A program made the position numbers and the translations under genes. A DNA stretch of 20,000 nucleotides from an uncultured virus (IMG/VR IMGVR_UViG_3300009499_000096) (lineage: Duplodnaviria > Heunggongvirae > Uroviricota > Caudoviricetes): the IMG/VR virus record IMGVR_UViG_3300009499_000096. One strand, given 5' to 3'. Position 1 is the stretch's first letter. The number at the start of each line of letters is the position of its first letter. This document shows, piece by piece, positions 1,755 to 20,000 of this stretch. Below the pieces are notes generated by a model that worked only from the letters and a program-made list of their open reading frames with translations, searched no databases and was not told the origin of the DNA.

Positions 1755-1756
1755 CC

Positions 1757-1930: not shown

Positions 1931-1932
1931 CC

Positions 1933-2169: not shown

Positions 2170-2171
2170 CA

Positions 2172-2381: not shown

Positions 2382-2383
2382 AA

Positions 2384-2566: not shown

Positions 2567-2571
2567 TTTTC

Positions 2572-2721: not shown

Positions 2722-2723
2722 AA

Positions 2724-2924: not shown

Positions 2925-2926
2925 TC

Positions 2927-3214: not shown

Positions 3215-3216
3215 CC

Positions 3217-3375: not shown

Positions 3376-3377
3376 CC

Positions 3378-4075: not shown

Positions 4076-4076
4076 G

Positions 4077-4277: not shown

Positions 4278-4282
4278 TCAAA

Positions 4283-4591
4283 ATGAAATTGAAAAACCAC
4301 AAGAGGGCTCAGAAACTTGTTGGAACAACCATTGAGTTTGTTCCATGGTATCAGACGTTCAGAAAAGACACTACAATGACTGGAAAATTAATGAGAATCA
4401 GAGGAGCTATGGGTAGTAAAAGAGGGAGACCAGCAAAATCAGCAGACAAGATGATGGTCATTAAACCTACTGGGAAAACTAAGAAATGGCTCAAGGATAT
4501 TGGGCTCATGAAACCAAAGCAGAAAACTATTGTTCGGCTTCTTACTGGGCATAAAGTCAGAAGCCAAACCAAACTGAAGAGGGGAAAATAA
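4283..4591 (+). CDS. Basic protein 13 (102 aa), possible small beta-barrel
   Basis: ATG at 4283 after a GGAG SD; AQKLVGTTIEF...MTGKLMRIRG. Confidence 0.75.
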   Translation: MKLKNHKRAQKLVGTTIEFVPWYQTFRKDTTMTGKLMRIRGAMGSKRGRPAKSADKMMVIKPTGKTKKWLKDIGLMKPKQKTIVRLLTGHKVRSQTKLKRGK

Positions 4592-4593
4592 CC

Positions 4594-4884
4594 ATGAAGG
4601 GAAATCATAAGAAAATAGCCAGTGAACGTGAAACTATCCGAAAAGGTATAAGCCAACTGCTCAAGGAGATTGGGATGTCTAGTGCCAGCAAAACAGTGTT
4701 ACAGGTCAAGAAACCAGAGGATTTGAGCACGTTCATCCGAACTGCTCAGGGAAGATTCAAGCAGATGGGAGCTGGAGCTCCACCTAAGATTCAGAAATCT
4801 GTATCAACTGCTGTTCAGATGCTGGCTCAGTTGGAGAAGAAATACAAAAAACCCTTGAAGTATGAGCTTACAAAAATCTGGTGA
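4594..4884 (+). CDS. Small basic helical protein 14 (96 aa)
   Basis: GGGGAAAA-TAA-CC-ATG junction. Confidence 0.8.
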   Translation: MKGNHKKIASERETIRKGISQLLKEIGMSSASKTVLQVKKPEDLSTFIRTAQGRFKQMGAGAPPKIQKSVSTAVQMLAQLEKKYKKPLKYELTKIW

Positions 4885-4889
4885 TTGAC

Positions 4890-5138
4890 ATGGCTAAGAA
4901 GAAAGACAAGAAGAAAGAGAAGAAGAAGAAAAAGGACAAGGGGAAAGATAAGAAGAAATCCTTGGTCTCAGTAGAAAAAACTACTGATTCTGGAAAATTG
5001 AAAAAGAGCAAGAAGAAAGGAAAGAAAAAAGGCAAGAAAAAAGGCAAGAAGAAATCTGGGCTCTCAGTAGCTGAAGCTATTGGTTTGGGAGAATTTAAAC
5101 TGAAACCTCCAAGTGAAGTATTGTTTGAAGAGGTATGA
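4890..5138 (+). CDS. Poly-lysine, histone H1/protamine-like low-complexity protein 15 (82 aa)
   Basis: SD GGTGA (4880-4884); MAKKKDKKKEKKKKK...(KKKG)3KKK. Confidence 0.8.
   Translation: MAKKKDKKKEKKKKKDKGKDKKKSLVSVEKTTDSGKLKKSKKKGKKKGKKKGKKKSGLSVAEAIGLGEFKLKPPSEVLFEEV
5010..5054 (+). repeat. 12-bp tandem repeat encoding KKKG x3.75
   Basis: aagaagaaagga aagaaaaaaggc aagaaaaaaggc aagaagaaa. Confidence 0.8.
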
Positions 5139-5141
5139 CAG

Positions 5142-5315
5142 ATGGCTAAGAAGAAACTGAGTGAAATGAGTTACAGTGAGATACTTCAGAGAAACATAGA
5201 TCGTCATAATCGGAAGAGAGCTAAAAGCTTGGCTATGTTCCAAGCTGAACAGAAGAGGCAAGGAAAGAAAGCTAATGAGCCCATAGACTTGATGAAAATG
5301 GTAATGGGTAGGTGA
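5142..5315 (+). CDS. Small basic protein 16 (57 aa, MAKKKLSEMSYSEILQRN...MVMGR), absent from ORF track
   Basis: Translated by hand; SD GAGG upstream; same first 15 nt as the 4890 ORF. Confidence 0.75.
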   Translation: MAKKKLSEMSYSEILQRNIDRHNRKRAKSLAMFQAEQKRQGKKANEPIDLMKMVMGR

Positions 5316-5321
5316 TTGTGA

Positions 5322-5477
5322 ATGGGAACACGTATTAGAAAGCATGGAGAAAAATCTTGGGAAGTTTATGGAACTGGATTTCCAGTGTTTATAGCACAAT
5401 CAAAGAAAAAAGCTGATTCTGTCGCTAAAAGACGAAGGACAATTCTCAAAAATCGTAGAAAGAAGAGGAGACGATAG
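5322..5477 (+). CDS. Small basic protein 17 (51 aa, MGTRIRKHGEKSWEVYG...KKRRR), absent from ORF track
   Basis: Translated by hand; SD AGGTGA; contains W-x-V...SKKKA motif. Confidence 0.75.
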   Translation: MGTRIRKHGEKSWEVYGTGFPVFIAQSKKKADSVAKRRRTILKNRRKKRRR

Positions 5478-5480
5478 AAG

Positions 5481-5888
5481 ATGAGTGCTGAACAGATTGG
5501 TGGAGTTGCTATGATGGGGATGGCTTTAGCTTCTCAAGCATTTGTGGTGGATATGGCAAGTAGTCTCATCACAGGGCAAACTAGGCTTACAACATTCAGC
5601 AGAAGGAGACCTAAAAGCAAGATTGCCAGAACTAAAGCTGGAAAACCATACTTCAGAATCATAGCTTATGAGAGTAGCCGACATGGATTAATAATTCCTA
5701 AAAGAAGAATTGCAAGGCTCCCAAAAACAGCTATCTCAGCTATGGGAACCTTCTTTGATCCCGACACACATCATACAATCGTGGAAAGGGCTGCTAGACT
5801 TCAAAAGGGTAAGAAGAGAAAGAGCCAAATCAAATCAGCCAGAGTTACCCTACCAGCAAGCACAGTTAGTAAAATGATATTTGGATAG
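5481..5888 (+). CDS. Basic protein 18 (135 aa) with hydrophobic G/A/M-rich N-terminus
   Basis: N-terminal IGGVAMMGMALASQAFVV followed by an R/K-rich domain. Confidence 0.8.
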   Translation: MSAEQIGGVAMMGMALASQAFVVDMASSLITGQTRLTTFSRRRPKSKIARTKAGKPYFRIIAYESSRHGLIIPKRRIARLPKTAISAMGTFFDPDTHHTIVERAARLQKGKKRKSQIKSARVTLPASTVSKMIFG

Positions 5889-5896
5889 GATGAAAA

Positions 5897-6124
5897 ATGA
5901 CAAGATACTACACAATCAGAGACAGATACACTAGCAAGGACTTGGTTCTCACCAAAGCTGAGGCTATGAGAGCTCATGAGAGAGCTAAAGCAATGAAGAA
6001 GAAAGTGGTTAAGAACTTGGAGAAAATAACATTCTCTAAAGTGAAGGGAGTCAGTGAAAGGTCTCTGTTTGAGCTGCAAGGAGTGTTACGTTATCAAAAA
6101 GGACTCAAGAAGGGGAGAAGCTGA
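5897..6124 (+). CDS. Small basic protein 19 (75 aa)
   Basis: YYTIRD...VLTKAEA. Confidence 0.8.
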   Translation: MTRYYTIRDRYTSKDLVLTKAEAMRAHERAKAMKKKVVKNLEKITFSKVKGVSERSLFELQGVLRYQKGLKKGRS

Positions 6125-6126
6125 CC

Positions 6127-6366
6127 ATGGGCTACGTGCTATATGTTCATAACAAGTTTGGCTCAGGTAAACGCAAAGGAAAACCGAAAGGATATGGACA
6201 ATGGCATCCATCAAAAGCCTCTGCTGAACGACATAGAAAGAATCAGAGAGATACCTACAAAGATAATCCCAAGGATTTGATGGGAACCAGAATCGTGAAA
6301 GTTAAAGCTAATCATTCAAGGTTATCCTCAAAACAAATCAGAAAAAAATCTTTGGAAAGTGAATGA
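6127..6366 (+). CDS. Small basic protein 20 (79 aa)
   Basis: TGA-CC-ATG junction; HPSKASAERH. Confidence 0.8.
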   Translation: MGYVLYVHNKFGSGKRKGKPKGYGQWHPSKASAERHRKNQRDTYKDNPKDLMGTRIVKVKANHSRLSSKQIRKKSLESE

Positions 6367-6368
6367 AA

Positions 6369-6620
6369 ATGGGTAAGAAACTTAAAGCTTTGAAACGTAA
6401 AATCAAAACTCTCAAGAAAGACGTGGAGAAGGACTATCGGAAAACGAAAAAGGAGCTCCAGAAGCAGAAGAAGAAGGCTGAGAAGAGATATGCTGGTGTC
6501 GGGAAGAAAGTTGCAAAGGTTCAGAAAACTGCTCAAGCATGGTCTCTTAAGGTTCCTACTACTGCTGAACTTATTGGATTGGATGAACTCACGAAAAAGA
6601 AGAAGAGGAGACGACACTAG
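6369..6620 (+). CDS. Small basic coiled-coil protein 21 (83 aa)
   Basis: MGKK start at 6369 (6363 also possible); Lys-rich heptads. Confidence 0.8.
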   Translation: MGKKLKALKRKIKTLKKDVEKDYRKTKKELQKQKKKAEKRYAGVGKKVAKVQKTAQAWSLKVPTTAELIGLDELTKKKKRRRH

Positions 6621-6622
6621 AA

Positions 6623-6823
6623 ATGTCTAAGAAATATGGCTACTTAGTAAGAGGAAAGAAGGTGAAACAGGGAAAATTCTGCAAGACTTTAGGTGAGGCT
6701 GGTAGAGAATTAGTTAGACAGTTACGTGCTGGTGTGGAAAATGTTAAGGTTTCACCAATTAAAAATAAGAAAATGGCTGACCAGTATTCAAAGAAAATCA
6801 TTAGAAAGAGGAAGGGGAAATAA
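6623..6823 (+). CDS. Small basic protein 22 (66 aa)
   Basis: FCKTLGEA...LRAGVENVKV. Confidence 0.8.
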   Translation: MSKKYGYLVRGKKVKQGKFCKTLGEAGRELVRQLRAGVENVKVSPIKNKKMADQYSKKIIRKRKGK

Positions 6824-6825
6824 CC

Positions 6826-7059
6826 ATGGTTAGAACTTTGAAGGAAACAAAATCAAGTTATGAAAGACCAAAAGGCTGGGGAATGTTCCATACACATTAC
6901 GGAAAGAAAACTCTTGCTGAACGTCATGCTAAAAGACTTGAGAGAACTGACCTCTTGACCACAGCTATAGTTAAAACTCCTAAAGGCTGGAATGTTCTTC
7001 ATAAATCCAATAAGAGAAGTCTGGAATTGGTCAGAAAACAAGTCGCAAAGAGGGGATAA
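6826..7059 (+). CDS. Small basic protein 23 (77 aa)
   Basis: GGGGAAA-TAA-CC-ATG junction; YGKKTLAERHAKRL...IVKTPKGWNVL. Confidence 0.8.
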   Translation: MVRTLKETKSSYERPKGWGMFHTHYGKKTLAERHAKRLERTDLLTTAIVKTPKGWNVLHKSNKRSLELVRKQVAKRG

Positions 7060-7062
7060 ATC

Positions 7063-9152: not shown

Positions 9153-11711
9153 TTGAATCCAATGCCAATGAAAGTAATTGCAGCAAAGAAAGAGATTACT
9201 ACATCTGGCTTGACTCCCGAACAACAGGAAGCTTTCAATCCAGTAGCTGAAGAGTTCTGGACTCAAGTTGATGTGGAAGCTGCAAAGTCTCAAGAAGAGT
9301 TTGAAGCTCAGTTAGCTGGAGCTAAGAAAGAGGCATTGGCAACTTGGCAAGCAGAACTTCAAGGACAAGTTAGTAAGTCAGAGTTTGAAGCTGAAATCGC
9401 CAAGATGGAGCAAGAGCAGAGAGCTAAGTTTACAGGTGAAGTAGGAACCAAGGAATCTGAAGCTAGAGCAAAGTTTGAAGCTGAACTGGCTGAGAAACGA
9501 TCAGAGTTTCTGAGTGGACTTGAAACAGCTAAGAGAGCTGGTAAAAGACAGTGGCTTGCAACTTATAGACGACATTGGACACCAAGAGAAATGCGTTCTT
9601 GGGTAGTGGAGCAGAAAACTGGTTTTGAATCTGCTGTAGCTGGAGAACGTGAAGCCTTTGAATCACATCTAGGTGAATGGAAAGGTCTTGAATCACAAGC
9701 CTTTGAAAAGGGCTTAACTTCATGGAAGGAAGAACAGCTTGGAACATGGACTACACAAGCAGAACTATTGGCTGAAGGGCAAGAGCAGAGAATGAAGCTG
9801 GAAATGGCTTCATGGGAGTTTGCTGAAAGAGAGAAATGGACTAGCAAAATGCTTTCTTATCGTGAACAGCAAGCTAAGGTTCTTGAAGGATACAAGCTAG
9901 GTGAGTTCAAGGAAACAGCAAAGCCTCAGCCGACTAGCCTCAGCCAGCAAATCCTAGCATGGACACCACCTGACCTACCAGAGTGGAAAATAGAATTTCC
10001 CTTCTCAATCCCAGTGAAAGGTGGAGCTGTCCAGATAGGGTTTGATGTTGGAAAGTTCTTTGAAGGCTTGGCTAAAGGTGGAGCTGAAGCTGGAGCTGGA
10101 GTGATTGCTAGTGGAGAATCATTAGTGTATGGTGTAGGTGGATTGCTTGGTTTGCAAACACCAGCTCCACCACCTACTCTAACTGCTTCCCTACTACGAT
10201 CAGGTGTGAAAGGGTTAGGTGAAGCAACTGGACAGTGGAAAACAAGTTGGGAGTATGATGTTGGAGACATATTCATGGAACAGGGAGCTCCTTATGCTCT
10301 TGGAACATTGCTTGGAGACGTGTTGATGTTCTGGGCTGGAACCAAAGTGGAGAAAGCTGTAACAACAAGAGTAATCCCCAAGGTGAAGCAAGTTGTGTCA
10401 CCTGTAACTCAGAAAGTCAGCCAAGCTTGGAGACTGTCAAAAACTGGTATAGCCTTGGAGAAGTCAAAGATCGCATTAAGAACAGCTATGCCACATTGGA
10501 AAGGAAGCAGACTGGAAAGCTGGATTATTCAAAGGGGAATTAAACCATCCACTGAAACATTGGCTATTCACCAGCAACTAGGTAAATATTCAGCAAGGAC
10601 ATCTATTGGAGTTCCCAAATACACTGGTTACGCTGCTAAAGCAACCAGACAGATGGCTCCATCAGTCATAGATATTCCTGAACTGGCTAGAGCTCATGCA
10701 CTTGCTCAGAGAGGAGTTGTTACAGGAGCACAACTTCAAGCAGAAGCTGGAGCATGGGAAATGACCTTGTTCCCAAGAGCCACTGGTCAATTAATAACTA
10801 AAGGTGTAGCTCCAAGTGTGCTTGGAACAGCAGCCGAAATTGGACTAACAGAGTTTGCTAAGGGAGCTGTTGTTGGTGGATTGAAAATGACAGATCTCTC
10901 AAAGAGGATAACTTCTTGGAAGGTAAGAGCCTTAGCTAAACCACCAAAAGGATTCCTTGAGCCAGTGGTAGGTGGAAAACAAGCCTATACTCTTGGTGGA
11001 GCTGCTATGAGAAAACAGCTTGGTTTAGGAGCTGGAGTTCAATGGGAAATCGGCAAGCAATTAGGTGGAGCCTTCACCAAGCAGAAATGGGTAATGCCTA
11101 GTGCTGGACAATTCCACTTCCAAAAAGGCAAGCTTCCATCACTCAGCCGATTACTGAAAGAGCAGAAAGGAGTCACTTCAATACCTAGATTAATTGAGGT
11201 TCCAGCTAAAGCCATAGAATACTTACCAACTGTTGCTGGAGTAACTAAAATATCTTTACAGATTGGGCTCAAAGCTATTCCTCAAGTGCTTCCAATTATG
11301 GGAGCTGGAGCTTTATTAGGTGTCAAAACTGCTCCAAGAACTCCTGTGAGAATGAAGGAGAGAGTGATTCCATCCTTAAGCCAAGCTATAGGATTAGACA
11401 TAGGACTAGGAGTTCTCCCAGAAGTAGATCTGGGTTTGGGAGTAGCACAGGAATCAAAACTAGCTCCCCAACTGGCTCCAGTTCAGGAACTTGCTCAAGT
11501 AACAAAAGAAGTAGTTACTACTGTTCCTTGGTATGAACAACCAACAAAACAACCACCTTTGAGACCACGTAAGAAAGGAGAAGAAGAGCCTTTGAGAAAG
11601 TTCAAGCTGAGAAAATTTGTTGGTGAAGCAACAGTTTATCAGCGATACATAGCAAAACATCCGATAAGAGGAGTTAAAAGTGCAAGTAAATACATCTTTG
11701 GAAAATCCTAA
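9153..11711 (+). CDS. Large putative virion protein (852 aa): coiled coil, G/A-rich hydrophobic region, basic C-terminus
   Basis: 11/15-residue F/W-anchored repeats in the N-terminal ~250 aa; hydrophobic segments (LVYGVGGLLG; YALGTLLGDVLMFWAG). Confidence 0.75.
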   Translation: MNPMPMKVIAAKKEITTSGLTPEQQEAFNPVAEEFWTQVDVEAAKSQEEFEAQLAGAKKEALATWQAELQGQVSKSEFEAEIAKMEQEQRAKFTGEVGTKESEARAKFEAELAEKRSEFLSGLETAKRAGKRQWLATYRRHWTPREMRSWVVEQKTGFESAVAGEREAFESHLGEWKGLESQAFEKGLTSWKEEQLGTWTTQAELLAEGQEQRMKLEMASWEFAEREKWTSKMLSYREQQAKVLEGYKLGEFKETAKPQPTSLSQQILAWTPPDLPEWKIEFPFSIPVKGGAVQIGFDVGKFFEGLAKGGAEAGAGVIASGESLVYGVGGLLGLQTPAPPPTLTASLLRSGVKGLGEATGQWKTSWEYDVGDIFMEQGAPYALGTLLGDVLMFWAGTKVEKAVTTRVIPKVKQVVSPVTQKVSQAWRLSKTGIALEKSKIALRTAMPHWKGSRLESWIIQRGIKPSTETLAIHQQLGKYSARTSIGVPKYTGYAAKATRQMAPSVIDIPELARAHALAQRGVVTGAQLQAEAGAWEMTLFPRATGQLITKGVAPSVLGTAAEIGLTEFAKGAVVGGLKMTDLSKRITSWKVRALAKPPKGFLEPVVGGKQAYTLGGAAMRKQLGLGAGVQWEIGKQLGGAFTKQKWVMPSAGQFHFQKGKLPSLSRLLKEQKGVTSIPRLIEVPAKAIEYLPTVAGVTKISLQIGLKAIPQVLPIMGAGALLGVKTAPRTPVRMKERVIPSLSQAIGLDIGLGVLPEVDLGLGVAQESKLAPQLAPVQELAQVTKEVVTTVPWYEQPTKQPPLRPRKKGEEEPLRKFKLRKFVGEATVYQRYIAKHPIRGVKSASKYIFGKS

Positions 11712-11982
11712 ATCTCTATTCCCTACACGAATAGCTTTCGTATGGTCAATGGTGTTTCTAGGAATGATTATCTATGCCTTAGTCTGGTTCATGCTGGGTT
11801 CAGTAACTATGACAATTATAGAGGCTATGGAATCAGCCTTTACTTTTAGTGGAAACTGGGATTACGTGGTGGATCTAATCAAAAACATCATCTTGTGGCA
11901 TCCGATAATTTCAATATTCGGCTGGATACTCTGGGGATTCCTAAACAGTATGAGAAGGGATGTGAGATATGATATTGGCTAA
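11680..11982 (+). CDS. Small two-TM membrane/virion protein (100 aa)
   Basis: GAGGAG SD before GTG; two hydrophobic helices; basic C-terminus (MRRD). Confidence 0.75.
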   Translation: MQVNTSLENPKSLFPTRIAFVWSMVFLGMIIYALVWFMLGSVTMTIIEAMESAFTFSGNWDYVVDLIKNIILWHPIISIFGWILWGFLNSMRRDVRYDIG

Positions 11983-13717
11983 AAGACTTTGTATTGTCGT
12001 CTTTATAGCGTGTCTCATATCTGTGATTCTGTTCGGGAGTAAAATGGAGCCAGCACAAGCCTACTCAGTATCAACCTATCTGCTGGGAGACACCTATGAT
12101 GGTTACATCAAACAGGAAAACGCTGTGTATGGAACAGCTAGAAACGCATCAACTGGCTCTACTCCTCAAACCATAGTGAACAGATTCTATGTTGGGCAAG
12201 GAGATGATGGAGATGGAACCTTTGACGTTTGGAGAGCCTTTCTATTCTTTGACACATCAAGCATACCAGATGATGCAACAATCAACAATGCAACATTAAG
12301 CCTCTACCTTTATGGAGATCAATCTGATACTGACTTCAACCTTACTATTCAAACTGGAACCTCAATCAGACCTCATCATCCACTGGAGCAAGGAGACTAC
12401 GATTATCTATACTACTCTGGTGATGGTGGACAAACAAACAGTTCAACCCTATCTGCTGGCTTCAACAATATCACCTTCACATCAACTGGATTAACATGGA
12501 TTGATGTTGATGGAAGAACCGACTTAGTTCTCAGAGGAAGTAATGACATCAACAACATAGAACCAACAGCTCCTAATGATGAATACGTGCTTTTCTATGC
12601 TAGAGAAGGTGGTTCCAGTTATGCTCCAAGGCTTTACATTGACTATATTGTTGGTGGTGGAACATATGATTTTCATGGAGCTTTTGATGAAGATGGTATC
12701 AGAGATGGAGCCATCAATTGCACAGTATTCAGACAAAGTGAATCATCAGTAACCTTTGAACTGGATGGAGACTACCAGCTTACAACAGCAGATATTCCAA
12801 TAGCAGCCTACTTTGATATTGGAAACAATGAAAGCAGAGTTTATTACTTCTACCAGAGCTATGAAGAAGTTTATGTTATCAACCCAACAGATCCATACGA
12901 CACCTATCTCTTCACTGTAGTTGATATGGTAGGAACTGAATGGGCATACCTAGAAACTTTACTGGTTATCAACGGAACAGATACGATTGTGGAAAGATGG
13001 GATATTAAAGCAGTTCAAGAAATGCCCTTCACCTTATCTTGGGGAGTCACCTACAAGCTGAGGATTGTCTGTAATCTGGGAACTTACTACTATTCTAGTT
13101 TCGTAGCTGGAGCAAGCTATGGAACCTTACTTAGTATAACATCAGATATGTTTCCAGTAACTTTCGTGACTACTGAACCTCTTACTGTTACAGGTCAAAG
13201 AATGAATGGAACATGGCTTAGAGCATACTACTATGATTCAGAACAGGAAACTAACTGGATATATGTAGCCTTCTATGCTTATGGAGATTCAACACCAACA
13301 CTCTACACAAACCAGAGCACTTACACAATCACATATAATTGGTATGCAGCCGATAACGCAACTGACTTCTGGATCCTCATAACATCTAATCATAATAATC
13401 TGGGAACAATATCATGGACTTTTTCAGCTCCAGCTCCCTATGATTCCACAAACCCATGGTCAGGAATGGACATTGTTTTAGGTTCAGGGTTCCCTATCTC
13501 AGCCAGCCAGTTTCTTGGAGTTGGATTAGTGTTGTTGGTTTTCAGCGTATTCAGCCAAGCTAATGTAGGGATTGGAGTAATTGTTGGAATAATCTTGGCT
13601 GCTGTTCTCACTCTCATAGGATTTCTAAGTATAGGATGGGCTTGGCTGGCAACTTCAATGGCTGTAGGTGTGATCGTAGCATTAAGCATCCATAAGGATC
13701 GGGAGAGGAATATATAA
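11969..13717 (+). CDS. Secreted membrane-anchored glycoprotein with DNRLRE/disaggregatase-like N-terminal domain (582 aa)
   Basis: Signal peptide (AQA|Y); DGYI...RAFLFFDTSSIP...INNATLSLY...FYAREG...PRLYIDY; many NxS/T sequons; about three C-terminal TM helices. Confidence 0.8.
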   Translation: MILAKRLCIVVFIACLISVILFGSKMEPAQAYSVSTYLLGDTYDGYIKQENAVYGTARNASTGSTPQTIVNRFYVGQGDDGDGTFDVWRAFLFFDTSSIPDDATINNATLSLYLYGDQSDTDFNLTIQTGTSIRPHHPLEQGDYDYLYYSGDGGQTNSSTLSAGFNNITFTSTGLTWIDVDGRTDLVLRGSNDINNIEPTAPNDEYVLFYAREGGSSYAPRLYIDYIVGGGTYDFHGAFDEDGIRDGAINCTVFRQSESSVTFELDGDYQLTTADIPIAAYFDIGNNESRVYYFYQSYEEVYVINPTDPYDTYLFTVVDMVGTEWAYLETLLVINGTDTIVERWDIKAVQEMPFTLSWGVTYKLRIVCNLGTYYYSSFVAGASYGTLLSITSDMFPVTFVTTEPLTVTGQRMNGTWLRAYYYDSEQETNWIYVAFYAYGDSTPTLYTNQSTYTITYNWYAADNATDFWILITSNHNNLGTISWTFSAPAPYDSTNPWSGMDIVLGSGFPISASQFLGVGLVLLVFSVFSQANVGIGVIVGIILAAVLTLIGFLSIGWAWLATSMAVGVIVALSIHKDRERNI

Positions 13718-14154
13718 TGAGAATGACACCATTCACCATGGTTATGTTCTTCATCGCATTAAATGTAAGCCTATACATCATTAACGAAACTGGTGTTATC
13801 ACTCCATCTGGAACTGAAGCTCATCAGCCAATAGTTAGCCCAACAGAAGTATCTGGAACCCTTGTTGATATAAGTGGAACCAGCTTGCTAATGGCTGGAG
13901 TTCCACTTGTTATAGGAACCATAATCGGCTGGATAACTAGAAACATCTGGGCTGGTGGAACCCTTGCCATCATCTTGTTTGCATTAGACTTGCTTTTCCC
14001 AGTAGTCAGATGGGTATTGTTCGGTATCCCTGAGTTTCTCACTCAGATAGGAGTCCATTATTCTATAGTTCTAGGAATCACAGCTTTAATGAGTGTCGTC
14101 TGGTTCTGGTTCATCCTTGGCTTCATAGGGCAAAGACAACTGGAGACAACCTAA
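13717..14154 (+). CDS. Multi-pass membrane protein (145 aa)
   Basis: About four hydrophobic segments; TAATG overlap. Confidence 0.8.
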   Translation: MRMTPFTMVMFFIALNVSLYIINETGVITPSGTEAHQPIVSPTEVSGTLVDISGTSLLMAGVPLVIGTIIGWITRNIWAGGTLAIILFALDLLFPVVRWVLFGIPEFLTQIGVHYSIVLGITALMSVVWFWFILGFIGQRQLETT

Positions 14155-15987
14155 ATGTCCAAGCATAAGATAATGTTACTCTTTCTCATCTCTTCTTTAA
14201 TTATCAGTCTAACCACTGTGTTCATCCGACCTGTCTTTGCTGTCTATGATGGCTATGATGGCTTTGAATCTATGGACTTCAGCCTTTGGGAAACTGAAAA
14301 TGGGAGTCCAGAGATCGCTATATTTGAAGAAGTATTTGAGGGAGACTACAGCTTCAACAGAACCACAGCAGATCCAGAGACAGTTATGAATGTGCTTAAT
14401 GACACAGCTATTTCCGAAAGTTCGCCAGCAAGTCTCTGGATGGGAGCATGGGTTTATGTGGATGAATATTCCCCAGATCAAAGTGGAACTAATGGTCATG
14501 TGGCAATGCTTACGATAGAAACTGGTGGAGCACACAATGTAGAAATGGGCATCACAAAGGATGGAAGTGGCAACTTGATAATTTGGAGTGGAAACAGAGA
14601 AGGAACCAACTGGGGTTATGGAAGCATCCTTCAAACTGACGCTTGGTATTACTGGAGACTCCATGCTTACTATACTGGTAGTGGTTATCCCTACACTTGG
14701 AGTTGGGAGACCTACCTTAATGATACCCAGCAAGATGCTAATAGTGTAGGAGATGGCTACAGTGACACCATTGATAGAGTGTATGTTGGAAACCAGTATG
14801 GAGCTTGGGGAGCATCTGTTACTGGAAGGCTCTCTGTATTCATAGATAACGTGAATGTTTCTACTTCAGAGATCTCCTACTCTCCAACTTCAATATTCAT
14901 TCAAGCCTCTTCAGCTATTGAAATAGGAGCAAGTTTCTGGCTGAACGGAACTGAATACACAACTCCTCAAGTAGATCTTACTCTTACTGGAGCCACTGGT
15001 CTTTACCAGCTTATTATAGAAACCAGCAAAACCTTTGGTGGAAGCAACTATGAGTTCTCCTATGCCACAATCAACTCTACTGATTACTGGTCAAGTAACT
15101 TCTGGCTAACTATCACAGGGAACACCACTTTTCTATTCACGTATGCTGGAGACATCGGGGAGAATCCTTGGGTTCCACCTATCTACTCAAGTGATGGACT
15201 TAATGCTACATGGTATCTTAGAAGTGACACTCACACAGTTCACTCTCAGCTAGGTTATATCTTGAGTCCTGTTCAAACCAGCTCTGAATTATCTGATATG
15301 AGAACTCATGCAACCACAAGCATGACCACAAGTTATGGTGTGAGAATCTGGGTATTTGACGCTGATGGGGATTCAAGTGAATTAACCAGTGGCATACCTG
15401 TTGCAGTAGTCACAAGGTCTAGTGATGGAGATGGCATCCAGTCAGCTACGTGGACTTGCCCAGATTATCTTAATGTTGTAGATGCTGTAATGGTCAGGAT
15501 CTATCAGAGATGGGGAACTGACGCTTGGACAGCTAGATTAATCTACATAACGAAAAGTGGTCTCCTAGTGAAGTTTCCAACAGCATCATGGACATTCAAC
15601 TATTACACGAACAGAACCAGTGGAAGCACTAATTCAACCATGTGGTATGGCTCCTATGTTTACAACAGCAGATTGCAACTCTATTACACTAATTTGAATC
15701 CTTTTGAAACAATGCACTATCATCTTATCCGAACCGATTTTCTAGCTTTCCTTGTGACACCATGGACATATTTCCTTGGAGATATATTCTATGGGTTAAT
15801 CCTGTTGTTCATGTCAGTAACCACCTATCTGAGATACCACAGCCTCAGAGCAATCCTAGCATTAGTGTGGTTGTTTGGTGGAGTAGGTGGAATCTTGACA
15901 GCTATGATCCCAGCAGTAGCCTTCAACATAGCATGGTTATTCTTGGCTATAGCTTTGGCTATAACCTTGGTGAAGCTTGTCAGATAG
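14155..15987 (+). CDS. Secreted membrane-anchored glycoprotein with concanavalin A/LamG-like domain (610 aa)
   Basis: Signal peptide; YDGFES...WYYWRLH...TYLND...VFIDNVNVS; PEGA/InlB-B-like middle module; sequons; about three C-terminal TM helices. Confidence 0.8.
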   Translation: MSKHKIMLLFLISSLIISLTTVFIRPVFAVYDGYDGFESMDFSLWETENGSPEIAIFEEVFEGDYSFNRTTADPETVMNVLNDTAISESSPASLWMGAWVYVDEYSPDQSGTNGHVAMLTIETGGAHNVEMGITKDGSGNLIIWSGNREGTNWGYGSILQTDAWYYWRLHAYYTGSGYPYTWSWETYLNDTQQDANSVGDGYSDTIDRVYVGNQYGAWGASVTGRLSVFIDNVNVSTSEISYSPTSIFIQASSAIEIGASFWLNGTEYTTPQVDLTLTGATGLYQLIIETSKTFGGSNYEFSYATINSTDYWSSNFWLTITGNTTFLFTYAGDIGENPWVPPIYSSDGLNATWYLRSDTHTVHSQLGYILSPVQTSSELSDMRTHATTSMTTSYGVRIWVFDADGDSSELTSGIPVAVVTRSSDGDGIQSATWTCPDYLNVVDAVMVRIYQRWGTDAWTARLIYITKSGLLVKFPTASWTFNYYTNRTSGSTNSTMWYGSYVYNSRLQLYYTNLNPFETMHYHLIRTDFLAFLVTPWTYFLGDIFYGLILLFMSVTTYLRYHSLRAILALVWLFGGVGGILTAMIPAVAFNIAWLFLAIALAITLVKLVR

Positions 15988-16037: not shown

Positions 16038-17468
16038 GTGAGGTTGAAAAATGGGAAGATTGCTGCTTTTATCGTAAAAGGCTTTCTTCTCCTTTCTCTA
16101 TTCAGTAGCCTCATTCTCCTTCCCCCCCTAGCTTATTCTCCTTGGATGAGCACTCCTTCTGTTTTCATTAGCAGATGGGATGGGAGCTCATGGGCTACAC
16201 CAATTGCAGCAGATGGTGTAACTTATCCTAATGCCACTGGAGACACTTACCAGAGAAAAGCCTTCAAGGATACAGATGGATACTACTATATTACCCTTAG
16301 AACCTATGGGGAAACACCAAAATATGTGAGTAGTTCTGATGGAGAAAACTGGGGAGAAACAAGAGAACTCACTGATGTAGCTAGAGAAGTAGATGATTTT
16401 GAATATTCACATCTGAAAAACACTGTTAATGGAACAAGTGCATGGTCAAGGCAAGTTAGTGGTTTATTTTCGTATATTTGGGATTGGACTTGTGAAGCTG
16501 GAACTATCACCATGGGCAATGTTGGTGGTTACTCTGTTTATGCTAATTACACTGGTGGAACAGCTACATCCAACATCTACAATGACCAAAACTTCTATCT
16601 TGTTCATAAAAATGGAACCTCTGGAAACATTGCCTATATACGATTTCCCTCAAATCTTGAGGATTTGGATGCCACAATGGAATATGGCAATGGAACAAGT
16701 GTAGGCTGTAAAATCTTAGGCTACAACACCACTGATGATGATACTGCTGATATGATGAGTGTTGTCAAATCTAATGATGGAAAACTCTACTGGTGTGCTT
16801 TAGATAGGGATCCAAGAGACTTCATTGGTTCCTATGCTGGTAATGGAGCTATCACACAACTGGAGCAAGGCTATAATGATTGGTGTGCAACTACAGAAGC
16901 CATGAGTGTAGGAGCTCCAGAGGAAATACATCTCACATTCATTAATGCTTCTGGGTTCTACTATAGCAATTTTTCTGATGGAGCATGGGCAACTCACACA
17001 GACCTTGGAATCTCAGGAGCCTCTTACCCTGTTATATCAGTTGATACAGATAGAAACCTCATTATCATGTATGTTCGTGGTGGAGACATCAGATACATCA
17101 CTAAGCCCTTTGGCTCTGGCTGGGGAAGTGAACAATCCATGACAGGACTAAACACAATTTACAGGAGTCCAGCTTATCTCAGTTCTAATCTCTATGAGCA
17201 AAGTGGAGAGATCCTGTTAGTGTGGACTGGCTACGCTTTTGATTCAACTCCACCACCACCAAACGTGAATGTCTGGGTTACTGGTGTGCTTGCTCCCTAT
17301 GTGTATGTAGCCATCTCAGTGTGGAGTCTTGCGTTAATTATTGGAGTTGGAGCTGTTTTGATGAGCCAACAAACTGATGCTATGCCTTACGCTGTCATTT
17401 ACGGAATCAGTGTAACTATCGTGTTACTCATAGCCTTGGCAATACTGGCTCCATTCCTAGGAGTGTGA
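16038..17468 (+). CDS. Surface protein with BNR/sialidase-like beta-propeller and C-terminal two-helix anchor (476 aa)
   Basis: Asp-box-like YVSSSDGENW, YSNFSDGAW, YPVISVD; signal peptide; C-terminus shared with the next two genes. Confidence 0.75.
   Translation: MRLKNGKIAAFIVKGFLLLSLFSSLILLPPLAYSPWMSTPSVFISRWDGSSWATPIAADGVTYPNATGDTYQRKAFKDTDGYYYITLRTYGETPKYVSSSDGENWGETRELTDVAREVDDFEYSHLKNTVNGTSAWSRQVSGLFSYIWDWTCEAGTITMGNVGGYSVYANYTGGTATSNIYNDQNFYLVHKNGTSGNIAYIRFPSNLEDLDATMEYGNGTSVGCKILGYNTTDDDTADMMSVVKSNDGKLYWCALDRDPRDFIGSYAGNGAITQLEQGYNDWCATTEAMSVGAPEEIHLTFINASGFYYSNFSDGAWATHTDLGISGASYPVISVDTDRNLIIMYVRGGDIRYITKPFGSGWGSEQSMTGLNTIYRSPAYLSSNLYEQSGEILLVWTGYAFDSTPPPPNVNVWVTGVLAPYVYVAISVWSLALIIGVGAVLMSQQTDAMPYAVIYGISVTIVLLIALAILAPFLGV
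17268..17468 (+). repeat. Diverged 201-bp direct repeat, copy 1 (anchor-encoding)
   Basis: Colinear and ungapped with 18182-18382; differences are mostly synonymous or conservative. Confidence 0.85.
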
Positions 17469-18382
17469 AGAAGATGAAACTATTATCCTTGATTACTCTC
17501 TGTTTCTTCCTTCTCCTTCCAGCAATTATTATGCCCTTATCCTATTCTCCTTGGGTTCCACCATCTGAATCTCCAACTGAGGTTTTGATTGACAGCTTTA
17601 AGGATACTCCTAATATTTGGCTTGGTTTTTGGACTGAATATTTTGCTCCTCTTTCTGGATCTGCCAATTATGCTATGCAAGGTCAGAGCTTTGCTGTTTC
17701 AAATAATTACTATATCAGCAGAGTAAATTTCACACTTACAGATAATATAGGAAGTCCAGAAGCTACTTTGAAAGTAGCTCTGTTCAGTTGGAATGTAACT
17801 GATGGTCGTGTCTTTGGCTACAATTCCATCCCGAATAAACCCTTTGGAAAAGGAGAGGAATTGGCTAATAGTGATGGAATCTCTGTCTTGTTAGCTGCTC
17901 AAACTGTGGAACTTAGCTTTGAGTTCACAGGAGAGAACCGTTATGAGTTGATTGCTGGAACTGCTTATGGAATAGGTGTTTATGTTGATGTCAATGTCAC
18001 CTTTGGTGGAAGTAATTACTTTGGTGTTTCAGGAAATTCAGGACTCAAAGCTGTTCATGAGGGAAATAGGTTTACTCAATATAATGCTACTTATGGAGCA
18101 AGTCCTACTAGCGATGCTCATTTTGCTGTTTACGGATTTACTGAAGAAAGCTATGAAGGGTATTGGGCTCCTACCAACACTAATGTTTGGGTTACTGGAG
18201 TATTTGCTCCCTACGTTTACATGGCAATATCAATTTGGAGCCTAGCGTTAATTGTAGGAGTTGGAGCTGTTCTTTATACACAACAAACAGATGCAATGCC
18301 AATAGCAATCATCTATGGAATTGCTATAACAATCGTGTTACTTATCGCATTAATGATCCTAGCTCCATTCCTAGGAGTTTAA
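17465..18382 (+). CDS. Surface protein with beta-sandwich (GQSF-type) domain and C-terminal two-helix anchor (305 aa)
   Basis: QGQSF...ISRVNFTL...LKVALF...FEF...LIAGTAYGIGV...DAHFAVYG; termini paralogous to 16038-17468. Confidence 0.75.
   Translation: MKKMKLLSLITLCFFLLLPAIIMPLSYSPWVPPSESPTEVLIDSFKDTPNIWLGFWTEYFAPLSGSANYAMQGQSFAVSNNYYISRVNFTLTDNIGSPEATLKVALFSWNVTDGRVFGYNSIPNKPFGKGEELANSDGISVLLAAQTVELSFEFTGENRYELIAGTAYGIGVYVDVNVTFGGSNYFGVSGNSGLKAVHEGNRFTQYNATYGASPTSDAHFAVYGFTEESYEGYWAPTNTNVWVTGVFAPYVYMAISIWSLALIVGVGAVLYTQQTDAMPIAIIYGIAITIVLLIALMILAPFLGV
18182..18382 (+). repeat. Diverged 201-bp direct repeat, copy 2
   Basis: Shares tgggttactgg, ttgctcccta, gcgttaatt, ggagttggagctgtt and gctccattcctaggagt with copy 1. 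Confidence 0.85.
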
Positions 18383-18412
18383 CAAAATGTCACAGTTAAG
18401 GAGCAGCCGACA

Positions 18413-19435
18413 ATGAAACTGAGATCAAAGTATCATATGAGAATGATGTTCCTAGCCTTTGCTGTGATCCTTGTCTCTTTGTCTCTGCTCCCTAACTCTG
18501 TTATGGCTATCACTGAAGTATTTGATGATGGTGGAGTTGCTTTCTGGGCTACTGGTGGAGCTGTAGAATCCAATGATTCAGTGGAGAAAGTTTCTGGAGA
18601 TGATAGCTACAAGCTGGTTCTCAGTAATGGTGTGAGCTTCAATGCTAGGCATAATTTTGGTTCACAACAAGACTTTTCAACAGAAACCTATTTTTCTGTG
18701 TGGATTTATGGAGCAGACACAGCCGACAGTGATTATATCTGGATTAGATTCATGAGTGCTGTTCAAGCAGATCAGCAATACTATACTGTAATTTACATGA
18801 ACTTCTCTGGATGGCAATTCTTTAAGATTGCAAGAGGAGATTTCCTTATAAATGAAGGAGCTCCTTCATGGAACAGCATTAGAGAAATGGAAATTCTCTC
18901 CTTCTATGCTGGTGGCTCAGAAACCATCAGGTTTGATTTCATGAATTTTGAAAGTGATGTATTCTCTCTCAGTGTGCGTTCTTCTCCTCAAACAACTTTT
19001 ACTATTGATGCCAGTCCTTACAGCACTCCCCAAAACAACATAGAGCTCAATGCTGGGCAAACCTACAGTGTAGTGGCTCCAGCAGAGTTCATTCAAGGAA
19101 ACAGAATGTATTACTTTGATTACTGGCTCATCAATGGAACCACATCTTCCACCAGCCGAATCTACAGTTTAACAGCTACAGGAGACACCACACTGGGAAT
19201 ATATTGGGAAAGTAACCAGCAGAGAGCTGTGGATGTAGCTATTCCCTATGCTTATGCTGCAATCACGATATGGAGTATGTCATTAATAGTAGCCATAGGA
19301 GCTGGCATGGCTGTCACAATTCAAACACAAGAATTTACTCTGGGCATGACAACAACAGTGGTTATTGCTATTGGAGTCACGATTGTTTTGTTTATTGCTT
19401 TGCCTCTACTTAGTGCTTTCACTGGGCTTGGTTAA
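18413..19435 (+). CDS. Surface protein with galactose-binding-like CBM (CBM11/CIA30-like), PEGA/InlB-B-like module and two-helix anchor (340 aa)
   Basis: DFSTETYFSVWIYG...NFSGWQFFKIARGDF...PSWNSIREMEI; YYFDYW; C-terminal PYAYAAITIWS...VTIVLFIAL. Confidence 0.75.
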   Translation: MKLRSKYHMRMMFLAFAVILVSLSLLPNSVMAITEVFDDGGVAFWATGGAVESNDSVEKVSGDDSYKLVLSNGVSFNARHNFGSQQDFSTETYFSVWIYGADTADSDYIWIRFMSAVQADQQYYTVIYMNFSGWQFFKIARGDFLINEGAPSWNSIREMEILSFYAGGSETIRFDFMNFESDVFSLSVRSSPQTTFTIDASPYSTPQNNIELNAGQTYSVVAPAEFIQGNRMYYFDYWLINGTTSSTSRIYSLTATGDTTLGIYWESNQQRAVDVAIPYAYAAITIWSMSLIVAIGAGMAVTIQTQEFTLGMTTTVVIAIGVTIVLFIALPLLSAFTGLG

Positions 19436-19702
19436 TTCTGGAACTTTCTCTAAAAGAGTAGGGTTCTGACGTATGAACCTCAGCTTGATTTCTGACCTTA
19501 ACGGATTTGCTTCACAAAACTCTACCACAAACTCCAGCTCTTGATTCAAGATAATACCCATGGACTGTAACATTTTTTTAGGCAAGCCAACAATAGGTTG
19601 CTTATGCTCTACTCTAACCTTTCTTGTTACTGGCTTTTCACTTTTATTGGTTATGCGTAGCTTTAAGGGCTCTACAATTATGCCCTTATCTTTTTGAGAC
19701 AT
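19406..19702 (-). CDS. AbrB/MazE/SpoVT-like swapped-hairpin transcription regulator (98 aa)
   Basis: RKVRV....IVGLPKKMLQSMGI..NQELEFVV matches the AbrB-family pattern; SD GAGGGAG upstream. Confidence 0.7.
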   Translation of the reverse strand: MSQKDKGIIVEPLKLRITNKSEKPVTRKVRVEHKQPIVGLPKKMLQSMGIILNQELEFVVEFCEANPLRSEIKLRFIRQNPTLLEKVPELTKPSESTK

Positions 19703-19715
19703 GGGCTCCCTCTAC

Positions 19716-19753
19716 AAAATCCATGGAAAGTATTATACAATACAACTTATAAG
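19716..19753. promoter_or_regulatory. Divergent promoter: second copy of the CCATGG operator-like motif plus palindromic TATA CTTATAAG
   Basis: aaaatccatggaaagtattata (19716-19737) is 20/22 identical to 1491-1512; CTTATAAG at 19746-19753. Confidence 0.6.
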
Positions 19754-19787
19754 CCTATAGCCGACAACACAAAATTGAGGTATTAAG

Positions 19788-20000
19788 ATGAGAATTGGTG
19801 ACGTAATTGCCATGACAGCACTAATTATAGTAGTGCTTATTGCCTTGATTATCGCTGCACAACTTCAAACTGTTGCACTTGGTATGGACTTGGGAGCCAG
19901 TGGAAATGCCACTAGGACAACCTTGTTCACTAACACTTGGACTGGGCTCACCTTAGCATCAGTAGGGATCATTATCTCTGCTGCTGTTGGTATCCTAGCA
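19788..20000 (+). CDS. Putative major capsid protein of spindle-shaped virus type (two hydrophobic helices), truncated by window end
   Basis: Translated by hand: MRIGDVIAMTALIIVVLIALIIAAQLQTVALGMDLGASGNATRTTLFTNTWTGLTLASVGIIISAAVGILA. Helix-loop(NAT sequon)-helix architecture as in fusellovirus VP1-type MCPs; own promoter and GAGGT SD. Confidence 0.65.
   Translation, partial: MRIGDVIAMTALIIVVLIALIIAAQLQTVALGMDLGASGNATRTTLFTNTWTGLTLASVGIIISAAVGILA

Follow-up and report, generated by a model that had tools for sequence, protein, structure and literature searches.

Lectin-like proteins of an uncultured virus end in a hairpin that resembles, in swapped helix order, its candidate capsid protein

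The window, that is, the whole 20,000-nucleotide stretch of uncultured virus DNA analysed here, is best explained as the structural arm of an archaeal virus, so far undescribed, that probably is spindle-shaped (lemon-shaped) and has a large genome (Table 1). Together with the loci L001-L036 it makes up a set of 37 sequences, in which the gene order of the structural module is the same in L005, L010, L019, L027, L030, L032, L033 and L034. Within that module, p582 has a weak match to Disaggr_repeat (E 0.001, under the Pfam cut-off). By analogy with the three-helix bundles of VP4 and B210 in the virus SSV19, p610 is a candidate tail-spike or adaptor analogue. Eleven homologues of p98 in related loci adjoin the gene of the major capsid protein (MCP)-like protein; the p98 family comprises 17 ORFs, and p98 has no match in Pfam or PHROG. 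NxS/T sequons are about twice as frequent as expected in p476, p582 and p610, an excess that may be counted as support for outside exposure, and neither p852 nor p336 contains any.

Table 1. Features of the structural arm in the window
Feature	Position	Strand	Description
p852	9153-11711	+	conserved structural module (9153..14154)
p100	11680-11982	+	conserved structural module (9153..14154)
p582	11969..13717	+	secreted, conserved; three hydrophobic helices at the C-terminus; between p100 and p145; context
p145	13717-14154	+	conserved structural module (9153..14154)
p610	14155..15987	+	large, secreted, conserved; three hydrophobic helices at the C-terminus; context
p476	16038..17468	+	476 aa ORF; signal peptide, ~7-bladed beta-propeller passenger, C-terminal hairpin anchor
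p476 anchor module	17226..17465	+	pre-anchor segment; helix A, like MCP helix 2; short turn; helix B, like MCP helix 1; used in anchor alignment and profile tests
p305	17465..18382	+	305 aa ORF; signal peptide, beta-sandwich passenger and a hairpin anchor at the C-terminus
p305 anchor module	18140..18379	+	first row of anchor alignment
p340	18413..19435	+	340 aa ORF; signal peptide, putative CBM_11-like domain and a further beta domain, divergent hairpin anchor at the C-terminus
p340 anchor module	19181..19432	+	row of anchor alignment
p98	19406..19702	-	small conserved protein; adhesin genes on one side, MCP gene on the other
MCP-like two-helix protein	19788..20000	+	71-aa open-ended ORF, cut at window end; next + strand gene after the adhesins

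The three adhesin-like proteins p476, p305 and p340 are real paralogues, each combining a cleavable-looking signal peptide, a passenger that differs from one protein to the next and a common C-terminal hairpin of two hydrophobic helices. They are read as exported surface proteins, probably N-glycosylated. The N-terminal segment is a short hydrophobic leader that does not resemble the first MCP helix (hhalign 10.3, under the shuffle mean). As predicted originally, the passengers have three distinct folds. In p476, the AF2 model (pLDDT 64.8) is all-beta with helices at 410-442 and 446-475, the Photorhabdus PLL/PHL propeller lectins lead the PDB matches (E 1e-8), and the eight NxS/T sequons, against 4.2 expected, all fall inside the passenger. 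The beta-sandwich of p305 (pLDDT 74.5; C-terminal helices 245-269 and 272-300) finds its best PDB matches in a baseplate protein of phage phi812, a capsid protein of cyanophage A4, PHR domains and the lectin-like domain of Cwp84. Both models thus contain a terminal helical hairpin of about 30 + 30 residues. For p340, structure rows of the ESM Atlas match CBM_11 (TM 0.55-0.63, residues 30-182 and 31-265), and the CBM_11-like assignment of this predicted domain is a lead only. The database form of p305 has 302 aa and starts at the ATG at 17474.

The anchors of p305 and p476 are 81% identical across 81% of an 86-aa query region, and the underlying DNA is a repeat (17268-17464 and 18182-18378, 76% identical); the anchor of p340 shares 40% identity with that of p305. 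The anchor is a real family beyond the window, as a profile of six anchors retrieved 34 representatives at E <= 1e-3 from 1.84 billion proteins. In 33 of these the match ends no more than two residues from the C-terminus, at protein lengths between 155 and 1112 aa, and the passengers include ConA-like Laminin_G_3, DUF2341, a PQQ propeller with Ig and PKD domains, and a GH59 lectin domain. All six anchor ORFs of the locus set (three in the window and one each in L003, L006 and L017) lie upstream of a same-strand MCP gene. The hairpin-anchored module is nonetheless accessory, because 9 of the 11 related loci with both a p610-like and an MCP gene lack one in between.

The MCP-like protein belongs to a family of about 85 aa (97 clusters in the family search), with helix 1 (H1) at residues ~3-27, a GNAT sequon in the loop and helix 2 (H2) from residue ~48. 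No sequence match was found in Pfam, PHROG or PDB. The family aligns with ORF21 of the virus His1 over 41 columns (39% identity, hhalign probability 15%), and ORF21 tops an MCP HMM search of 121 His1 and SSV1 ORFs, at just 8.2 bits. The MCP-like protein is the best candidate for the coat protein of this virus group. Tandem MCP paralogues are present in L002, L004, L019, L027 and L030.

According to the original prediction, the anchor is apparently an MCP hairpin whose two helices have changed places, helix A corresponding to H2 and helix B to H1. The four helix strings on which it rested, and their ORFs, are all located where it had put them. As single pairs, the alignment of A with H2 does not rise above chance (3/21 identities, z 0.8, the score being reached by 20% of 2000 shuffles), while that of B with H1 fares better (10/22 identities, z 2.1, p 0.04) but is weak as a lone pair. 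Likewise, a profile of six anchors against one of 37 MCP sequences yields an hhalign probability of 2%, and 17% of 150 column shuffles reach its score. The swapped order therefore holds for the families and not for the two window sequences, since the likeness exceeds chance only with the deeper families (33 anchors, 94 MCPs).

With these families, several test designs were tried with the hypothesis already in view. A permuted anchor HMM (in the order B, pre-anchor, A) was searched by HMMER against 1,398 ORFs. Directly after the six anchors it retrieves 22 of the 40 MCP ORFs, with E-values from 2.9e-5 to 8.1e-3 and each as a single domain spanning both helices, the first ORF that is neither anchor nor MCP appearing at E 0.01. 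The top MCP score is 20.0 bits versus 11.8 for the best other ORF, a value that is significant solely in this small, hypothesis-driven search space and would not be so against billions of proteins. Among 1,136 non-anchor ORFs, 36 of the 40 MCP ORFs fall within the top 43; the window's own cut MCP reaches just 9.2 bits (E 0.071). In hhalign, the MCP profile against the tandem anchor scores 23.9 over 65-66 columns, H1 pairing with B and H2 with A (P 0.0014); none of 120 column shuffles reaches this score (12.8 +/- 2.15, maximum 20.7). The hhalign probability of the MCP profile against the anchor profile is just 17.6%, and the aligned helices have a low identity of 19-22%. When single sequences are set against the tandem anchor profile, MCP ORFs fill the first 34 of 174 ranks, with up to 31.5 and 71% probability, whereas the best non-MCP hairpin scores 18.3, the decoys being about 140 hairpins of related viruses rather than a broad sample of membrane hairpins. 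Along the same line, a helix-level score of my own design, with a transmembrane (TM) background and 157 inter-family helix pairs, places A-H2 at rank 2 (8.8, reciprocal best) and B-H1 at rank 4 (7.9, B being the best partner of H1).

Chance, helped by a common Ile/Val/Leu/Ala/Gly-rich composition, could in principle have produced such scores, the hairpin then being an ordinary double membrane anchor. Comparisons of few sequences give no significant signal, and neither do searches from the MCP side: with a permuted MCP HMM, the six anchors come at ranks 26, 476, 554, 654, 732 and 1053 of 1,057 ORFs, and separate H1 and H2 HMMs do not enrich for anchors. Against the tandem MCP, p305 is the only one of the single anchors to score high (21.1, rank 2 of 141), followed by p476 (15.5), L006 (14.3) and L003 (14.1), and unrelated TM proteins reach 19-21 as single sequences. 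Yet when profiles were compared in permuted order with shuffle controls, as the original prediction had proposed, the signal was lost in every control that keeps composition, in HMMER and hhalign alike (in HMMER, wrong pairing 9.1 bits, reversed helices 6.3, and 60 column shuffles 4.9 +/- 2.1, maximum 12.9). Moreover, seven further TM families of these loci score lower in hhalign (8.9-15.1), and the swapped order recurs in a second anchor of a different kind. Chance is hence an improbable explanation, and the sequence comparisons support a specific, swapped-order similarity between the anchor hairpin and the MCP-like protein.

This second case concerns L005_7632_9101 of a related virus, a polysaccharide deacetylase with a CBM whose gene lies between the p610-like and MCP genes. 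Its terminal hairpin is a different one, yet it too matches the tandem MCP in the order H2, H1 (score 28.9 at 50% probability, with 33% identity over 51 columns), ranking first of 141 natural hairpins, with 0 of 150 shuffles reaching the score. It finds no match in the anchor family (rank 46 of 174). Where the MCP has its N-terminus, the second helix of this hairpin keeps an M-x-D-x-I-A start, more suggestive of a fusion scar than of convergence.

Whether the likeness reflects descent or mimicry is a separate matter. The hairpin might be a specialised membrane or tail anchor of other origin, placed at the tail ring or in virion lipid, and its resemblance convergent, because helix pairs that pack on MCP helices in the same orientation would be selected for similar surfaces. 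The low identity, the failure of the reverse MCP search and the three-helix anchors of p582 and p610, which are not MCP-like (13.2-13.7, although L025_881, the reference for p610, may misrepresent its C-terminus), would all fit such an origin, as would the non-MCP helical bundles of SSV19, which do pack against VP1 according to the excerpted description (PMC9351363). On the other hand, one colinear alignment, dependent on residue order, spans both helices and the intervening segment, the apparent fusion scar of L005 speaks against convergence, and the tandem MCP genes are an obvious source. Mimicry, although the most serious competitor, is thus regarded as rather unlikely, and I tentatively infer common descent instead.

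The preferred reading, to which I assign a probability of roughly 0.55, is that secreted lectin-like passengers are carried on a swapped-order MCP-like hairpin that packs with the MCP in the shell. Of the capsid display proposed originally, the swapped-order likeness, the passenger folds and the topology stand, for the signal peptide places the passenger on the outside, the side of the sequon-bearing MCP loop; what follows goes beyond these. Helix A would run from outside to inside as the equivalent of H2, the short inner turn would occupy the place of the two MCP termini, and helix B would return outwards as the equivalent of H1, so that the chain ends at the outer face, the site of the glycosylated MCP loop. 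In its lateral helix surfaces the hairpin may match an MCP subunit and therefore could pack among MCP strands or at strand ends, entering the shell during assembly at the host membrane. The virion would thereby bear several alternative, putatively glycan-binding heads for attachment. The likeliest origin would be a fusion within tandem MCP genes, in which a secreted passenger came to precede H2 of one copy and H1 of the following one.

Alternatively, the adhesins may be displayed on the membrane of the infected cell and not be virion parts at all, serving for instance in superinfection exclusion or in the remodelling or binding of cell-surface glycans. A signal peptide with a membrane hairpin does deliver a protein to the host membrane first, the module is accessory, and the L005 counterpart is an enzyme. 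Cell display is nevertheless about as doubtful as chance, if not slightly more so, given that the genes sit within a conserved structural module directly before a same-strand MCP gene, that an MCP-like anchor is hard to explain at a purely cellular site, and that variable lectin-like proteins are described as typical virion-recognition proteins of spindle-shaped viruses (PMC12934983). Should packing in the shell prove true, the shell could bear exchangeable sugar-binding domains.

Parallels exist in known systems. In His1, ORF21 is presumably the major capsid protein VP21, and I take VP26 and VP27 to be virion proteins. As in the window, the small two-helix ORF21 of this virus (Halspiviridae; AF191796) adjoins ORF26 and ORF27, each with a signal sequence and, at the C-terminus, a membrane anchor. 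The likeness of ORF21 to the window MCP is weak (15% probability, 8.2 bits), and the C-terminus of ORF27 has about three hydrophobic segments, unlike the two-helix anchors. A swapped-order MCP likeness is not known for that C-terminus.

In Thermococcales spindle-shaped viruses, sugar-binding-type domains are always present, highly variable among close relatives and read as receptor recognition, much as the variable passengers seen here; in the part of the preprint drawn upon, the description of these lectin-like proteins includes no capsid-protein-derived anchor (PMC12934983).

The closest solved precedent for shell-packed C-terminal helices is provided by VP4 and B210 of SSV19 (Fuselloviridae). 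In the excerpted description, the C-terminal Z-shaped three-helical bundles of the tailspike VP4 and the adaptor B210 form the ring where the VP1 strands start, the VP1 termini point inward, and VP1 subunits stack straight onto the VP4 bundle (PMC9351363). In SSV19, as proposed for the window, large glycosylated outer proteins are tied to the shell by C-terminal hydrophobic helices on a hairpin MCP. SSV19 differs in having three helices per bundle, not two, and in confining them to a 14-bundle ring at the tail, and no VP1 likeness of the bundles figures in the same excerpt (PMC9351363). In this respect, p582 and p610 of the window resemble VP4 and B210, whereas the three adhesins instead use a two-helix, MCP-like module.

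The three adhesin-like proteins of the window, p476, p305 and p340, share a single layout: a short hydrophobic, signal-peptide-like leader stands at the N-terminus, a variable outer domain (the passenger) follows, and the chain closes with a C-terminal hairpin of two helices (the anchor, helix A first and helix B second). The original prediction held that this anchor is apparently a circularly permuted copy of the hairpin of the major capsid protein (MCP), with helix A corresponding to the second MCP helix (H2) and helix B to the first (H1); the helix strings quoted for anchors and MCP were all found in ORFs of the window. It further named the passengers as a propeller, a beta-sandwich and a carbohydrate-binding module, of which the first two are borne out by AF2 models of moderate confidence. 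The p476 model (pLDDT 64.8) is a multi-bladed beta-propeller with a terminal hairpin (helices 410-442 and 446-475), and the PDB entries that it matches best are the seven-bladed Photorhabdus lectins PLL/PHL (E ~1e-8, TM 0.64-0.66 by target); that of p305 (pLDDT 74.5) is a beta-sandwich with a hairpin, and its best structure matches are a baseplate protein of phage phi812, a cyanophage capsid protein, PHR domains and the lectin-like domain of Cwp84. For p340, the CBM_11-type domains found by ESM Atlas structure search (TM 0.55-0.63) are a lead only. The passengers of p476 and p305 are unrelated to each other; their anchors share 81% protein identity (over 81% of an 86-aa query region) and 76% DNA identity (over 197 nt).

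NxS/T sequons of the adhesins are confined to the passengers; they occur at about twice expectation in p476 and in p582 and p610, two secreted proteins of the same module, and p852 and p336 have none. Archaeosortase signals of the PGF-CTERM type combine a signature motif, one TM helix and a basic cluster at the very end; such a signal was rejected for the adhesins, which have two helices, no PGF-like motif and no basic tail (the chains end in ...FLGV, ...FLRL or ...FSGL). The turn between helices A and B measures 8-14 aa and the chain stops 2-4 residues past helix B, a topology, as read from the sequence, that would fit superposition on the MCP, with the passenger and the chain end outside and the turn inside. 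An alternative placement, in which the N-terminal hydrophobic segment serves as MCP helix 1 and the passenger lies in the loop, was likewise rejected: the segment is a short signal-peptide-like leader, at 10.3 against the MCP profile.

Genes of the structural and adhesin-like modules in the window
Feature	Coordinates	Remarks
p852	9153-11711	structural module
p100	11680-11982	
p582	11969-13717	secreted; three C-terminal hydrophobic helices
p145	13717-14154	
p610	14155-15987	secreted; three C-terminal hydrophobic helices
p476	16038-17468	adhesin-like, propeller passenger
p305	17465-18382	adhesin-like, beta-sandwich passenger
p340	18413-19435	adhesin-like, CBM_11-like passenger
p98	19406-19702	small conserved protein, - strand
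MCP-like ORF	19788-20000	two helices; cut by window end

The window has a GC content of ~0.40 and carries nearly all its long ORFs on the + strand (see table); database records of its proteins give a contig of 73,423 bases. The virus is uncultured, and only metagenome contigs attest it. The order p852-like, p100-like, p582-like, p145-like, p610-like, MCP-like is kept in the longer related loci, the related loci comprising 34 from a metagenome scan and one (L002, in the MAG of an uncultured archaeon) from a genome scan. The sequon-free p852, with an E/K/A-rich, coiled-coil-looking N-terminal part and Gly/Ala-rich stretches, is kept at 21-26% identity across seven loci and has no family match. 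Proteins p582 and p610 consist of variable N-terminal parts followed by conserved C-terminal parts that hold the three hydrophobic helices, p582 with a sub-threshold match to Disaggr_repeat (E 0.001). The family of p98 (76-98 aa, n=17 ORFs in the loci) always adjoins the MCP gene, on a strand that varies by locus, and is also without a family match. Further upstream, 1549-7060 holds a head-to-tail series of about 25 short + strand ORFs in which stop and start codons overlap, as is typical of archaeal virus early regions; none of those scanned had a PHROG match.

The MCP-like family comprises 97 clusters at 90% identity, on contigs of up to 106 kb. Its members are about 85 aa long (range 75-107 aa), with H1 and H2 conserved and, in the loop between them, an N-x-T sequon whose N40 and T42 are nearly invariant; this is the anatomy of the hairpin MCPs of spindle-shaped viruses (~70-95 aa, two long hydrophobic helices, a loop, a frequent sequon). 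His1 ORF21, which we take to be the His1 capsid protein, came top of 121 His1 and SSV1 ORFs for the family HMM (8.2 bits), with 39% identity over 41 columns at an hhalign probability of only 15%; for SSV1 VP3 the probability was 1.3%. Pfam and PHROGs scans (12 and 19 window proteins) found no match for the MCP or the three adhesins, and PDB sequence searches with MCP and anchor profiles returned chance-level rows only (SecG, E 1.5; PAR1, E 0.19). On anatomy and gene context, the protein at the window end is best read as the MCP. A tblastn search of a GenBank phage set gave no match to the MCP, p610 or p582, and IMG/VR gave one marginal stretch for the MCP protein and none for the MCP or anchor alignments; the window belongs to a widespread virus group that appears to be undescribed. 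For ANME-1 archaea, large spindle-shaped viruses (45-73 kb) have been described that carry a 'structural arm' and, in some cases, two MCPs (PMC9894754); no link was found between them and the window contig.

MCP-like genes stand in tandem in five loci (L002:1977-2638, L004:604-1265, L019:10001-10544, L027:9724-10270 and L030:9220-9765), as copies of 84-95 aa with the longer loop in either the first or the second copy. One source labels seven MCP-like representatives (P0021, P0040, P0044, P0057, P0080, P0089 and P0100) as ABC-type Fe3+/nitrate transport permease subunits, which looks like mis-annotation of an 85-aa hydrophobic hairpin. The sampled genomes of the phylum to which the MAG with L002 belongs are mostly of 0.3-1 Mb, as is usual in ultra-small archaea; L002 is a viral contig of 6.4 kb that may be mis-binned, so that no host can be named.

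An anchor profile seeded with six sequences (the three window anchors and those of L003, L006 and L017) retrieved 34 proteins at E <= 1e-3 from 1.84 billion representatives, three being the window's own. In 33/34 the match ends at most two residues from the C-terminus, in proteins of 155-1112 aa; P0135 alone departs from this, matching helix A only and then diverging. Signal-peptide-like N-termini are present in 28/34, the leader alignment leaving out P0135 for its divergence past helix A and P0124, P0126, P0132, P0133 and P0134 as lacking a clear leader and being possibly fragments. Pfam assigned passengers in 7 of the 31 non-window members (ConA-like, DUF2341, PQQ-propeller with Ig and PKD, GH59-lectin) and none in the remainder. 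With the p305 anchor as query, a word-indexed protein search returned the window's own proteins only, and the anchor is absent from 371/371 genomes of one archaeal phylum. Where the context is known, the anchor ORF lies upstream of an MCP gene (6/6), and the two genes occur together in four loci. Among 11 related loci with both p610-like and MCP genes, an anchor-family gene stands between them only in L006 and a different hairpin protein in L005, with no hairpin-anchored gene there in 9/11; the anchor-bearing module is accessory.

Taken as a single pair, the window sequences do not rise above chance: the gapless alignment of helix A with H2 cited in the original prediction is at chance level (3/21 identities, z 0.8), and that of helix B with H1 is weak (10/22 identities, p 0.04). 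Six anchors against 37 MCPs gave an hhalign probability of 2%, at a score reached by 17% of 150 column shuffles; a permuted MCP HMM ranked the anchors only 26 to 1053 of 1,057, and HMMs of H1 and of H2 showed no enrichment of anchors. When single anchors were set against a tandem MCP (the profile joined to itself, so that a swapped helix order can align), p305 alone scored high (21.1, rank 2 of 141), p476 and the anchors of L006 and L003 reaching 14-15.5 against 19-21 for unrelated small membrane proteins. The window's own truncated MCP scored only 9.2 bits with the permuted anchor HMM. A complex prediction of two MCP copies and one anchor, run without controls, scored 0.00 and is counted neither for nor against binding.

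Profiles of the deep families (33 anchors, 94 MCPs) place the swapped order above both composition-preserving and natural controls, colinearly over the two helices, in hhalign, in HMMER and in a helix-level score. On the tandem MCP, the hhalign alignment runs from H2 across the junction into H1 with a score of 17.3, which 2/120 shuffles reach. With the MCP profile against a tandem anchor the score is 23.9 (P 0.0014, probability 17.6%, 65-66 columns), pairing H1 with helix B, the loop with the segment before helix A (pre-anchor) and H2 with helix A; it was reached by 0/120 column shuffles (null 12.8 +/- 2.15, maximum 20.7) and fell to 16.8, 15.2 and 13.5 upon reversal of helix A, helix B and both. 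Seven other transmembrane families of the same loci scored 9.1-13.7 against the anchor and 8.9-15.1 against the MCP. Run over 134 natural hairpin segments and 40 MCP ORFs, the tandem anchor profile put MCPs at ranks 1-34 of 174, in constant register and with up to 31.5 and 71% probability, the best other hairpin standing at 18.3. At the level of single helices, scored over a transmembrane background, A and H2 are reciprocal best partners (8.8, second of 157 inter-family pairs) and B is the best partner of H1 (7.9, fourth of 157), B's own best being a decoy helix (8.7).

HMMER searches with a permuted anchor profile (B, pre-anchor, A) against 1,398 ORFs recovered, after the anchors themselves, 22/40 MCP ORFs at E 2.9e-5 to 8.1e-3, with one domain spanning both helices in every case; the first unrelated ORF stands at E 0.01. 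The top MCP score of 20.0 bits, meaningful only because the search space is the virus's own proteins, compares with 9.1 for the wrong pairing (A, pre-anchor, B), 6.3 for reversed helices and 4.9 +/- 2.1 (maximum 12.9) for 60 column shuffles. The original prediction had allowed that hydrophobic helices may align by chance; both here and with the tandem anchor the deep profiles beat every shuffle. The tests were designed with the hypothesis already known, and several designs were tried; judged from the sequence profiles, the likeness between anchor and MCP, be it by descent or by mimicry, is very probably real and order-specific, at a probability of about 0.85.

Five small membrane proteins of the structural module (93-121 aa; L030:6037-6342, L027:6481-6843, L032:6713-7024, L033:2051-2362 and L010:13446-13724) score 8-12 bits with the permuted MCP HMM and, in hhalign, 19-21 singly and 9.7 as a family profile. 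Their MCP likeness is probably due to chance, and they could be further hairpin shell proteins.

A second hairpin protein occupies the same position before the MCP gene in L005 (7632-9101). It is a secreted protein of 490 aa with a polysaccharide deacetylase (PF01522) and a CBM_4_9-like domain, and its hairpin is not recognised by the anchor profile (rank 46 of 174). Against the tandem MCP, this hairpin aligns in the order H2 then H1 with a score of 28.9 (50% probability, 33% identity over 51 columns; 46% identity to MCP helix 2 alone), the best of 141 natural hairpins and reached by 0/150 residue shuffles (null 13.9 +/- 2.8). Its second helix starts M-L-D-L-I-A-L, and MCPs start M-R-I-x-D-V-I-A-M at that place, as would be expected had tandem MCP genes been fused by read-through. 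The hairpin resembles the MCP of its own locus no more than it does other MCPs, and a word-indexed protein search with it found itself only, without relatives; the L005 anchor is possibly an independent fusion.

In the likeliest mechanism, the leader would export the passenger through the host membrane, and the passenger would be glycosylated there; helix A would cross inward, the 8-14-residue turn would stay inside, and helix B would return, leaving the chain end at the outer face. With helix A mimicking H2 and helix B mimicking H1, the anchor could occupy an MCP-like position, its large domain taking the place of the MCP loop. We infer that the anchors co-assemble with MCP strands and that the three different heads provide multivalent glycan attachment. 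A wider and doubtful proposal is that circular permutation has more than once made the coat protein of spindle-type archaeal viruses into a scaffold for display, the window family and the unrelated-looking L005 anchor being two independent inventions. A secreted domain would have been followed by helix 2 of one tandem MCP copy fused to helix 1 of the next copy; the fused subunit would slot into the capsid lattice from outside, and interchangeable lectins and enzymes would be borne by the shell as a whole and not by the tail alone.

How minor proteins are taken up into the fluid, strand-built shells of lemon-shaped viruses, and how these viruses vary host recognition, is to our knowledge still unexplained. 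An atomic example is SSV19, whose tail proteins are held by helical bundles (PMC9351363); if the permuted reading is true, a swapped-helix coat-protein anchor would be a second, simple solution beside these bundles. A single step would then explain how an exported, glycosylated domain is grafted on a shell whose subunits have both termini inside. On this reading adhesins could be spread over the particle body and swapped as cassettes, the anchor DNA being 76% identical between two neighbouring genes and their passengers unrelated. Such anchors would also add a rare case of a viral capsid protein circularly permuted in nature, and a template for protein display on archaeal virus shells, which are very stable.

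The SSV19 MCP points both termini inward and its loop outward; minor proteins of that virus enter the shell via hydrophobic bundles at their C-termini, and VP1 strands stack on these bundles (PMC9351363). On that description, the VP4/B210 bundle is the closest solved system and the principle is the same, namely a minor protein held by C-terminal helices; yet that bundle has three helices and is confined to the tail, and the passages of that paper bearing on it report no likeness to the MCP, whereas the adhesin anchors have two helices and are MCP-like. A Z-shaped bundle with three helices, of the VP4/B210 type, was rejected for the adhesins, both sequence and AF2 models giving two helices; p582 and p610, with three hydrophobic segments each, are better candidates for it. 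His1 ORF26 and ORF27 likewise have signal sequences and C-terminal anchors, and lie beside the two-helix ORF21. Variable lectin-like proteins are described as typical of the spindle viruses of Thermococcales (PMC12934983). Searches of the CC-licensed PMC and bioRxiv literature found no account of a spindle-virus MCP that is permuted or fused. The holding of minor virion proteins by C-terminal helices is known, whereas what would be new here is an anchor on such a protein that is coat-protein-like and, as its sequence suggests, circularly permuted.
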